Source: an uncultured Methanosarcinales archaeon | GTDB lineage: Archaea; Nanobdellota; Nanobdellia; Woesearchaeales; CAXGTL01 | DNA length: 64,000 nt | Direction of reading: 5' to 3' | NCBI GenBank assembly: GCA_964535955.1 | Contig: CAZHVK010000007.1 | Coordinates: 4,118 to 68,117, forward strand | Shown here: in pieces, positions 62,099 to 64,000 of the stretch | Layout: each line of letters opens with the position of its first letter | How positions within the stretch are numbered: position 1 is the first letter of the stretch | Notes under the pieces: model-generated | Database searches by the model: none | Told to the model about the DNA's origin: nothing | What the model saw: only the letters and a program-made list of their open reading frames with translations | Program-made: the position numbers and the translations under genes

Positions 62099-64000
62099 GT
62101 GATAAACATAAAAAACAATATTATAGGCATTGGCAACCCCTTGCTAGATTTTATTATAGAAGTTGATGACAATATACTTTTAGATATTAATCTGAACAAA
62201 GGAGAGATGCATCTTATTGATAAAAAGAAAAGTAAAGAAATTCTTAGTAAATTAGAAGATTATAAAGTAAAAACTGCACCAGGAGGAAGTTCTGCAAACA
62301 CTTTGGCTGGAGTCAGTGTTTTAGGAGGAACTTCAATTTTTATAGGCAAAATCGGCAATGATTCTTATGGCCATATTTATGAACAAAAGACTGTAAAAAT
62401 AGGCACAATCTCTAGATTATCAAAACAGGATTCAGAAATAACAGGGCATGCAATAACTTTAATAACTCCTGATTGCGAAAGAACATTTGCAACCCATCTT
62501 GGAGCAGCATTACATCTAAAATCAGAAGATATTATTGAAGAAGATATAAAAAGCAGTGAAGTACTACATTTAGAAGCATACCAATTAGAAGATCAAAATC
62601 TTAAACAAATGGTTATACATGCTGTTAACATTGCAAAAAATAATAATATCATGATTTCTATTGATTTATCAGATCCTGCTTTAATAAAACGAAACTTAGA
62701 ATTTTTTAAACAATTTGTAAAAGAGAATATTGATATAATATTTGTTAATGAAACAGAGGCAACAGCTTTTACAAACAAAAGCCCAGAACAGGCTTTGCAC
62801 GATTTGTCAGAACATTGTAAAGTTGCAGTTGTGAAATTAGGTGAACATGGCAGTTTAATAAAAACTAACAACAAAACATACAAAATACCTGTTTACAAAA
62901 CAAATGTAGTGAATACAAATGGCGCAGGTGATATGTATGCAGCAGGAATTCTTTATGGGATCACAAACAATATTGACATGGAAAGAGCAGGAAACATAGC
63001 TAGTTATGCAGCTTCGCTTGTTGTTGCAAGTTCTGGTGCAAGAATTGATGATGATAAAATAGTAAAATTAAATGCATTTGTAAATAAAAAAACAAATAAT
63101 GATAAAACTGAAGTAAATGAAAATGATAAAAATATAATCAATAATAAAGAAATTATAAAAAACAATGAAGAAAAGGTGATACATATGAATGAAACTGAAA
63201 ATTACAAAATAAAAGACATTTATTTAGCAGACTTTGGTAGAAAAGAAATAGAAATTGCTGAAAAAGAAATGCCTGGACTTATGGCTACTAGAAAAAAGTA
63301 TGGACCAAATAAACCACTTGCAGGAAAAAAGATAATGGGTTCATTACACATGACAATACAGACAGCTGTTCTTATTGAAACTCTGGTTGAATTAGGGGCA
63401 GACGTAAGATGGGCTTCATGTAATATTTTTTCAACACAAGATCATGCAGCAGCTGCAATTGCTAAAACAGGAGTACCAGTGTTTGCATGGAAAGGCGAGA
63501 CATTAGAAGAATATTGGGATTGCACATTAAAAGCATTGACTTGGCCTGATGGTTCTGGACCTGATCAGATTGTTGATGATGGAGGGGATGCAACTCTTAT
63601 AATACATAGAGGATATGCTGCTGAGAATAACTCTTCCATACTTGATGAACTAACAGATAATGAAGAATTAAAAATCATTAATAATGTTCTTAAAAAAGTT
63701 TTACAAAAAGATCCTCAACATTGGCACAAAGTTGCAGAGAAAGTTGTTGGAGTTTCAGAAGAAACAACAACAGGTGTACACAGATTGGTACAAATGCAAG
63801 AAAAAAATGAACTTTTGTTCCAAGCAATAAATGTTAATGATTCTGTAACAAAATCTAAGTTTGACAATGTATATGGGTGTAGACATTCATTAACAGATGG
63901 TATAAAAAGAGCAATGGATGTATTAATTTCTGGAAAGACTGCAATGGTATGTGGTTATGGAGATGTTGGTAAAGGAAGTTCTGAATCATTAAAACAAGAA
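62099..64000 (+). CDS. ahcY: PfkB-family (adenosine-kinase-like) kinase continuing in frame, without stop, into S-adenosyl-L-homocysteine hydrolase (partial at window end)
   Basis: GTG start after TAG; kinase motifs GIGNPLLD and [11 protein letters not shown]; 25-codon Asn/Lys linker with no stop; AhcY N-terminus [33 protein letters not shown] from 63185 preceded by GGTGA; AhcY NAD-binding GYGDVGKG near 63960. Confidence 0.6.

Follow-up and report, generated by a model that had tools for sequence, protein, structure and literature searches.

Does the reading frame at the 3′ end of the window, a 64,000-nucleotide stretch of contig CAZHVK010000007.1 (assembly GCA_964535955.1), represent a genuine fused gene and, if so, what would its product do and how did it come about? 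A preliminary description, drawn up from the sequence alone, had recognized in this frame a kinase of the PfkB family followed, with no intervening stop codon, by an S-adenosylhomocysteine (SAH) hydrolase (SAHH; hereafter AhcY). We find that the fused gene is real. In our assessment, it probably encodes a bifunctional enzyme of 834 amino acids (aa; 92 kDa) composed of a nucleoside kinase, a disordered linker of ~35 residues and a complete SAHH, in which the kinase would consume the adenosine released by AhcY and which would derive from a pair of adjacent genes. Coordinates below are those of the window, unless a locus or contig is named, and the features on which the argument rests are the following.

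62097..62103, + strand: Shine-Dalgarno (SD)-like AGGTGAT, read from the sequence, overlapping the GTG start and followed after 4 nt by an in-frame ATA (62108-62110)
62099..62101, + strand: GTG start, the sole canonical start that keeps the conserved N-terminal strand and GIGNPLLD
62099..63082, + strand: PfkB-family nucleoside kinase domain of the adenosine-kinase type (aa 1-328)
aa 53-317 of the product: PfkB (PF00294), Pfam E 6e-45 and 154 bits (cut-off 25.8)
63083..63184, + strand: low-complexity Asn/Lys/Glu/Ile linker (aa 329-362), delimited by composition
63174..63180, + strand: internal SD motif AGGTGAT (contains GGTGA), read from the sequence, 4 nt before an ATG
63185..63187, + strand: internal ATG (Met363), the putative ancestral AhcY start and a possible second initiation site for a 52-kDa free AhcY
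63185..64000, + strand: SAHH of the long bacterial/eukaryotic type (aa 363-634), covering the domain that binds the substrate and the beginning of the NAD domain
aa 368-589 of the product: AdoHcyase, Pfam E 6e-108
aa 590-633 of the product: AdoHcyase_NAD, cut by the window end, Pfam E 7e-18 on the window fragment

One uninterrupted frame, identical in independent assemblies

The frame begins directly behind a TAG codon (62096-62098) with the GTG at 62099 and, as had been described (more than 630 codons), runs stop-free to base 64000, that is, for 634 codons. At the base composition of the window (30% G+C), stop codons account for 7.7% of random triplets, and the chance of 634 stop-free codons is ~7e-23 (~0.018 for the junction of ~50 codons alone). 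Pfam recovers a complete PfkB kinase and then AhcY in this one frame, and the motifs quoted in the preliminary description are present, GIGNPLLD spanning aa 10-17 and TNGAGD spanning aa 273-278 of the window translation. Other particulars required correction. The linker, given as 25 residues, measures 34 (aa 329-362), with ~50 residues between the two Pfam domains; the AhcY N terminus is indeed in frame, but it is not full length in the window, which holds just the first 272 AhcY residues; and a product expected at ~75 kDa is in fact one of 92 kDa, given that in contigs of identical sequence the gene extends 603 nt beyond the window end to its stop codon, for a total of 834 codons. Programmed frameshifting or readthrough was considered and rejected, as the junction contains no stop or frame change to bypass. 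An Rfam scan returned only tRNAs, and neither within the fused gene nor ahead of it did the scan detect a riboswitch, such as one for SAH or S-adenosylmethionine (SAM), or any other RNA element.

Three other assemblies contain the same DNA at 100% identity and without gaps over 2.0-7.9 kb, including 2.4 kb around the gene, namely, JGI metagenome 3300009374, ENA assembly ERZ23499079 and the Logan assembly of run SRR9166041. The window translation is matched at 100% by proteins P0124 (834 aa, JGI) and P0125 (820 aa, NCBI/ENA/Logan), both from the cluster (90% identity) that also includes a close AhcY relative, so that two independent gene callers each call a single product of 820 or 834 aa. P0124 ends in ...GPYKPEHYRY, the canonical C terminus of SAHH, and 3′ of the gene the identical contigs encode FtsZ (on the opposite strand), an integrase and a methylase. 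Since three other assemblies carry the identical 834-codon gene, the fused gene is not an assembly error, and the search for a missed stop or frameshift that the preliminary description had called for uncovered none. The explanation of the open junction as a sequencing or assembly error, or as a pseudogene-like accident confined to one contig, can be regarded as refuted for practical purposes: AT-rich low-complexity linkers are error-prone in principle, but nothing beyond this prior possibility speaks for it, whereas the identical sequence was obtained from different samples and pipelines, the junction is kept in frame in more than 40 diverged homologues and the catalytic residues of both domains are invariant.

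The metagenome ERZ23499079 carries, on different scaffolds, both the fused gene of the window and that for a second fused protein, P0001, which is 72% identical (scaffold_371 and scaffold_2630). Two related fusion-carrying populations therefore coexist in the sample from which this assembly derives.

A nucleoside kinase tethered to a long-type SAHH

The best sequence matches of the kinase half in the PDB are 3ubo, a Sinorhizobium 'adenosine kinase' aligned end to end (E 4e-44), 4e3a and human adenosine kinase (ADK) 1bx4 (3e-20). An AlphaFold2 (AF2) model of the domain has a mean predicted local distance difference test (pLDDT) score of 93 and a predicted template-modelling score (pTM) of 0.91. 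When this model was used as a query in Foldseek, 3ubo and 4e3a came first (TM-score 0.92-0.93) and Escherichia coli guanosine kinase third, and these were succeeded, at TM 0.79-0.88, by over 30 chains of adenosine kinase (mouse, human, trypanosomes, schistosomes, plants and Toxoplasma). Indeed, ranks 1-39 are all adenosine or guanosine kinases (TM 0.79-0.93), with ribokinases entering from rank 40 (TM 0.72-0.73), a ranking that assigns to the kinase the alpha/beta lid of nucleoside kinases and not the beta lid of the ribokinase type. Among 19 fused proteins, the invariant kinase columns are D17, G62-G63-S64, N67, N217/E220 and T273/G275-A276-G277-D278. They align with the GNPLLD, GGS..N, NETE and DTNGAGD motifs of 1bx4, of which the N-terminal GNxxxD provides the ribose-binding Asp and the C-terminal DTNGAGD the anion hole and the catalytic Asp. 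The structural model thus shows the N-terminal half to be a nucleoside kinase of adenosine-kinase architecture, and the epithet 'adenosine-kinase-like' is upheld, since adenosine kinases are the best matches among solved structures in both sequence and fold.

The same kinase subfamily was encountered in other multidomain proteins. P0156 (598 aa) is a kinase-phosphorylase fusion (PfkB-PNP). At locus L104 (985-3495; contig Ga0233439_10008169), an open reading frame (ORF) of 837 aa directly after the AhcY gene combines the kinase with PNP_UDP_1 and phosphoribosyltransferase domains, which by its domain content would be a triple purine-salvage fusion.

Full-length P0124 scores 576.2 bits against the ahcY equivalog model TIGR00936 (cut-off 497.6; model positions 1-416), and the window fragment alone falls under the cut-off (317.7 bits) only owing to its truncation. 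Solved structures of long-type SAHHs in complex with NAD and adenosine share 62-67% identity with the AhcY part of P0001 (67% in the case of 6uk3 and 5v96). A short archaeal SAHH or S-inosylhomocysteine hydrolase type was ruled out by the far lower scores of archaeal-type chains (E 1e-86 to 1e-96 for 7R3A/7R37 versus 1e-213 for long-type 6UK3) and by the long C-terminal tail. In the alignment of 19 fused proteins, the invariant AhcY columns include the H417 region, D493-D494, E554-E555, K585, D589 and GYGDVGKG; the NAD-binding GxGxxG and the conserved substrate-site motifs are all found in the window translation and are invariant or nearly so in the alignments. The tail KP(E/D)HYRY occupies the very C terminus of P0124 and of nearly all full-length fused homologues aligned. 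In characterized SAHH, the C-terminal Lys426 and Tyr430 contact the NAD of the neighbouring subunit and so complete its NAD site (PMC10978960). From the identity of P0001 to tetrameric SAHHs, we infer that the AhcY half forms a homotetramer catalysing reversible SAH hydrolysis.

A whole-chain model of P0001 consists of two confident domains connected by a linker (aa 332-369) with pLDDT below 50, and has a pTM of 0.46. The linker is therefore predicted to be a flexible tether without fixed packing between the domains. Among fused homologues, it ranges from 5 to 47 residues in length and is variable in sequence as well. Another undescribed-looking AhcY fusion, P0142 (614 aa), carries an N-terminal DNA-binding domain of the MerR type.

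Distribution of the fused genes

Homologues carrying the same fusion, for which the preliminary description had advised looking, turned out to be numerous. A search with the 634 residues of the window retrieved at least 42 protein clusters (51-72% identity; about 790-830 aa) with PfkB and AdoHcyase in one chain. Where named, these proteins are called only 'adenosylhomocysteinase', some being labelled Candidatus Pacearchaeota; by record title, they belong to Pacearchaeota, Woesearchaeota-like archaea and Moraniibacteriota, the latter being bacteria of the candidate phyla radiation (CPR). The junction is open and in frame in every fused locus for which the DNA was read (L001, L016-L018, L021, L093, L098 and L103). 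It should be noted that genome and metagenome scans with the kinase-domain alignment were confined to the best 80 loci, among which neither the genome of the window nor that of P0001 is included, and that the taxonomic spread and the fraction of fused loci are accordingly samples rather than censuses. A search of a 50%-identity representative library matched, as far as the count of the fused family is concerned, exclusively single-domain representatives; it did reveal the PfkB-PNP and MerR-AhcY architectures.

One clade of fused proteins mixes members of Moraniibacteriota (L016-L018, L021, L098, L103) and Pacearchaeota (L093, P0009, P0039).

Loci L016-L018 are titled Candidatus Moraniibacteriota, and the neighbours of L017 look bacterial (NrtR/Nudix regulator), whereas the Pacearchaeota-type L093 adjoins archaeal GatD. 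The titles of the metagenome-assembled genome (MAG) records, together with these few neighbouring genes, suggest that the gene was transferred between domains after it had been fused.

No description of a PfkB-AhcY fusion was found in the full-text literature, in which few subscription-journal papers are covered, so that the absence is no proof; nor is the fusion mentioned in a 2026 review of SAHH or in a 2024 paper on archaeal SAHH. What is new here is thus an undescribed natural fusion, both enzymes and their metabolic partnership being already known.

Separate-gene relatives and the origin of the fusion

Unfused relatives display several arrangements. The kinase gene lies immediately 5′ of that for AhcY in L092 (TAA, 2 nt, ATG) and L094 (TAA, 7 nt, ATG), 1.2-2.4 kb 5′ of it in L003, L009 and L100, and immediately 3′ of it in L027, L030 and L104. 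Related genomes with two separate genes, which according to the preliminary description would speak against the fusion, thus do exist (L092, L094, L003, L009), but they belong to different lineages and leave the fusion standing; such relatives appear to represent the ancestral arrangement and not to indicate an error here. By the adjacency of the two genes in unfused relatives, a functional linkage of kinase and AhcY is indicated independently of the fusion itself. All fusions have the order kinase-then-AhcY, and the three adjacent loci with the order AhcY-then-kinase are all unfused, a bias which fits the need of SAHH for a free C-terminal tail. L013 comes from a Moraniibacteriota MAG and is nested among fused relatives; its kinase and AhcY frames are one base out of register and overlap by ~20 nt (4960-4990), so that either a fused gene has truly split into two again or the sequence contains an erroneous indel.

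The AhcY of the window is 88-90% identical to unfused woesearchaeotal AhcY and 64-74% identical to the AhcY of other fused proteins. Furthermore, it shares with the unfused enzymes a two-residue deletion and a three-residue insertion, both of which are lacking in the main fused clade. Bootstrapped neighbour-joining distance trees were built for each domain on a sample of sequences (200 replicates), the kinase tree being weakly resolved. In the AhcY tree, the window and P0001 group with unfused L009, L092 and L003 in 200/200 replicates (0/200 in the kinase tree), whereas grouping of the window and P0001 with the main fused clade is recovered in 0/200 replicates of the AhcY tree and 24/200 of the kinase tree. 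Monophyly of all fusions, and hence a single origin, is recovered in 0/200 replicates of either tree, the number of events remaining uncertain given the poor resolution of the kinase tree. The junction in the window lineage includes the native start region of its own type of AhcY. Taken together, the AhcY trees, the indels and the native start region at the junction argue for at least two junction events, and three or more are probable because P0024/25/29 and P0041 also stand apart.

Two further observations concern these trees. They are incongruent in that the AhcY of the window pairs with unfused L003 (163/200) and its kinase with fused P0001 (140/200). The AhcY type of P0024, P0029 and L100 looks mosaic, being devoid of the deletion in the N-terminal half and carrying the insertion of the window type in the C-terminal half.

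Translation start sites

The start of the fused gene is called differently in different records, at GTG 62099 (JGI, P0124) or at TTG 62141 (NCBI/ENA, P0125), the latter of which would delete the invariant G10 and G12. In relatives, the ATG lies ~24-29 nt after a TATA-like box, as in leaderless genes.

The internal ribosome-binding site GGTGA noted earlier before the AhcY Met is present as AGGTGAT, and the identical 7-mer with the same 4-nt spacing occurs at both the GTG/ATA start region and the internal ATG. GAGGT or AGGTGA motifs precede many other genes of the window by 4-9 nt, and an SD match of at least 6 nt is found at just 5 of the 279 internal ATGs in the window. In the fused ORF, AGGTGAT is followed by 4 nt, the ATG and then AAT GAA ACT GAA AAT TAC; the start region of the unfused L003 orthologue, aaGGTGATtaaaaATG, is nearly identical, consisting of AGGTGAT, five bases, ATG and AAT GAA AAT GAA AAT TAT. 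P0001 retains GAGGT seven bases 5′ of its internal ATG. Of the 41 fused proteins, 40 have a Met no more than 25 residues upstream of Y-K-[IV]-x-D, the first AhcY motif, although the linker around it varies; in 22 of the 41, this Met stands at exactly -6, where unfused AhcY most often starts.

Judging from this similarity, the ribosome-binding site and start codon of the ancestral AhcY gene appear to be retained inside the fused gene, so that some free 52-kDa AhcY is probably also made. The retention of Met, which is no proof in itself, points to an internal start that may still be used or is at least constrained.

Proposed function and alternative explanations

AhcY would split SAH, an inhibitory by-product of SAM-dependent methylation, into homocysteine and adenosine. 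At equilibrium, the reaction catalysed by SAHH favours SAH synthesis, and hydrolysis proceeds only with removal of adenosine. In the mechanism that we propose, the tethered kinase would use ATP to phosphorylate adenosine as it leaves AhcY (net: SAH + ATP + H2O -> homocysteine + AMP + ADP), thereby making SAH removal effectively irreversible, with the purine salvaged rather than lost. Fusion would secure co-expression and could surround the AhcY tetramer with as many as four kinase domains at its periphery, the N-terminal position of the kinase leaving the C-terminal tail of AhcY free to reach the NAD site of the neighbouring subunit. Internal initiation would yield some free 52-kDa AhcY, which may co-assemble with fused chains and dilute the kinase domains. 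The reduced-genome cells of CPR bacteria and of DPANN archaea, a group of very small, mostly symbiotic organisms, would benefit from salvaging purine and from clearing SAH at the expense of ATP. The fusion itself would have originated, probably more than once, from an adjacent and translationally coupled PfkB-AhcY gene pair. With respect to the pairing of the two activities, a methyltransferase was reportedly stimulated 5-fold, as against 3-fold, when AdoK was added to SahH in vitro, SahH being pulled by adenosine removal (PMC7317531), and SAHH and ADK interact in planta (PMC7367456). More tentatively, and as a combination that we consider possible but less than even in likelihood, one ORF would give rise to both the 92-kDa chain and the 52-kDa AhcY, assembled into mixed tetramers in a ratio set by the strengths of the two starts, with repeated origins of the fusion and its transfer across domains; under this combined scenario, dependence on ATP-driven SAH clearance and adenosine salvage would be the likely driver of the repeated origins.

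Several points weigh against the bifunctional, kinetically coupled enzyme. With the GTG embedded in an SD-like motif, the kinase start codon is uncertain, and so is the amount of fused protein; in the main fused clade, no SD motif precedes the internal ATG. A long disordered linker would not be enough for substrate channelling, and the benefit may lie in co-expression only. That the kinase acts on adenosine is suggested by its structural neighbours and by AhcY as its fused or adjacent partner. Of the bacterial structures titled 'adenosine kinase', the closest are structural-genomics entries. In NCBIfam, the kinase half reaches no equivalog cut-off, the top scores below threshold being those of iolC (112 bits versus 300), inosine/guanosine kinase (102-104 versus 367) and ribokinase (95 versus 300).

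If the loss of a stop codon between coupled genes were nearly neutral, most AhcY would come from the internal ribosome-binding site and the fusion would at best bring stoichiometric co-expression, neither channelling nor kinetic coupling being involved. The small distances between the unfused genes (2-7 nt, or an overlap), the single-nucleotide difference between L013 and its fused relatives, the intact internal SD and ATG, the disordered linker of 5 to 47 residues and the weak-looking kinase start codon are all compatible with such a history. We nevertheless consider it unlikely, as a neutral fusion should be reversed or lost, whereas the fused state has been kept across lineages in which the kinase domains have diverged to 46-61% identity, occurs in no fewer than two or three groups with separate roots and always has the order compatible with the AhcY C-terminal tail. 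A different possibility concerns the substrate. The PfkB domain could act on another ribose moiety, for example, as a ribose-1-phosphate or inosine/guanosine kinase, with an indirect link to AhcY and with nucleoside carbon entering the archaeal pentose-bisphosphate/RuBisCO salvage route. Such a role would accord with the fusion of the kinase subfamily to a nucleoside phosphorylase in P0156 and to a phosphorylase and phosphoribosyltransferase adjoining AhcY in L104, with the third place of E. coli guanosine kinase among structural neighbours and with the sub-threshold NCBIfam matches, which besides inosine/guanosine kinase include two ribose-1-phosphate kinase models, NF041134 (90-91 bits, residues 31-325) and NF053626 (82 bits, residues 59-319). 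These latter scores, however, are far under the respective cut-offs of 500 and 330 bits, and the Thermococcales ribose-1-phosphate kinase model leaves the N-terminal ~30 residues uncovered, whereas the kinase model superposes over its full length, alpha/beta lid included, on adenosine kinases (TM 0.82-0.93). Moreover, adenosine is the direct product of AhcY, which is here of the SAH-specific long type and not of the archaeal S-inosylhomocysteine type. On balance, a ribose-directed role appears quite improbable, and an adenosine-consuming kinase coupled to SAHH is the reading that we favour.

Genomic context

Among the genes of the window are those for RNA polymerase subunits in split form (B''/B' and A'/A''), for a family-B DNA polymerase and for MutS/MutL. 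The nearest named relatives of its RpoA' (67-70% identity) are labelled Candidatus Woesearchaeota or Nanoarchaeota, and the host is, by these genes, a DPANN archaeon of the Woesearchaeota type. The tRNAs of the window appear to contain introns. A cluster of tRNA genes is located just 5′ of the fused gene:

60629-60720, - strand
61621-61640
61716-61849, + strand
61953-62029, + strand

It includes two tRNA-Glu(UUC) genes, one of which is 92 nt long and probably contains an intron. The tRNA of 134 nt was found by Rfam only (31.5 bits) and presumably contains introns; its 5′ 20 nt (GGGCCTGTAGCT.AGTCTGG) recur ~95 nt upstream.

Comparison with known systems

The fusion has the appearance expected of a 'Rosetta stone' joining consecutive enzymes, and its recurrence in covalent form constitutes independent genomic evidence for the partnership of kinase and hydrolase. 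It would also suggest that selection has favoured purine salvage and the clearance of SAH at the expense of ATP in DPANN and CPR organisms, which are ultra-small and have a minimal metabolism. In practical terms, annotation stands to gain, the kinase being unrecorded under the current name 'adenosylhomocysteinase'; a single polypeptide could be used for testing product channelling between two active sites; and removal of SAH by one enzyme may be of use in SAM-dependent biocatalysis.

Compared with the adenosine kinases of human (1BX4), Sinorhizobium meliloti (3UBO) and Rhizobium etli (4E3A), the kinase of the window has the same fold with an alpha/beta lid (TM 0.82-0.93), the GNxxxD, GG..N, NxxE and DTNGAGD motifs and a similar size of roughly 325 aa, but it is only 20-30% identical to the solved enzymes, all of which stand alone, and is covalently joined to AhcY. 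With long SAHHs (6UK3, 5V96, 3OND, 4LVC), to which the AhcY of P0001 is 62-67% identical, the fused protein has in common the long-type insertion segment and the KPEHYRY tail, and adds to them a 362-residue N-terminal extension made up of kinase and linker; its AhcY is of the long and not the short archaeal type, although the host is an archaeon. AHCY-like proteins, among which AHCYL1/IRBIT has an N-terminal extension, and P0142 indicate that the AhcY N terminus tolerates added domains while the C terminus stays free, but those extensions are regulatory or DNA-binding, not an enzyme that uses the product of AhcY.

In plants, fungi and mammals, the pull of adenosine kinase on the SAHH reaction is long-established physiology, and evidence for a physical coupling of ADK and SAHH is, to our knowledge, sparse. 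The non-covalent eukaryotic partnership follows the same logic, removal of adenosine pulling SAH hydrolysis and sustaining methylation (PMC7317531, PMC7367456). The plant interaction and the fungal AdoK/SahH one-pot assays, however, involve separate gene products, whereas here one ORF encodes both. Most bacteria possess another irreversible means of SAH removal, the MTA/SAH nucleosidase (Pfs/MtnN) route; where the nucleosidase is lacking, SAHH is, as far as we know, the only route. The SAH deaminase and S-inosylhomocysteine hydrolase of methanogens address the same problem, the build-up of SAH in the face of an unfavourable equilibrium (PMC10978960). The deaminase and nucleosidase routes rely on deamination or glycosidic cleavage and involve no fusion, whereas the fused enzyme would achieve the same end by ATP-driven phosphorylation of the product.

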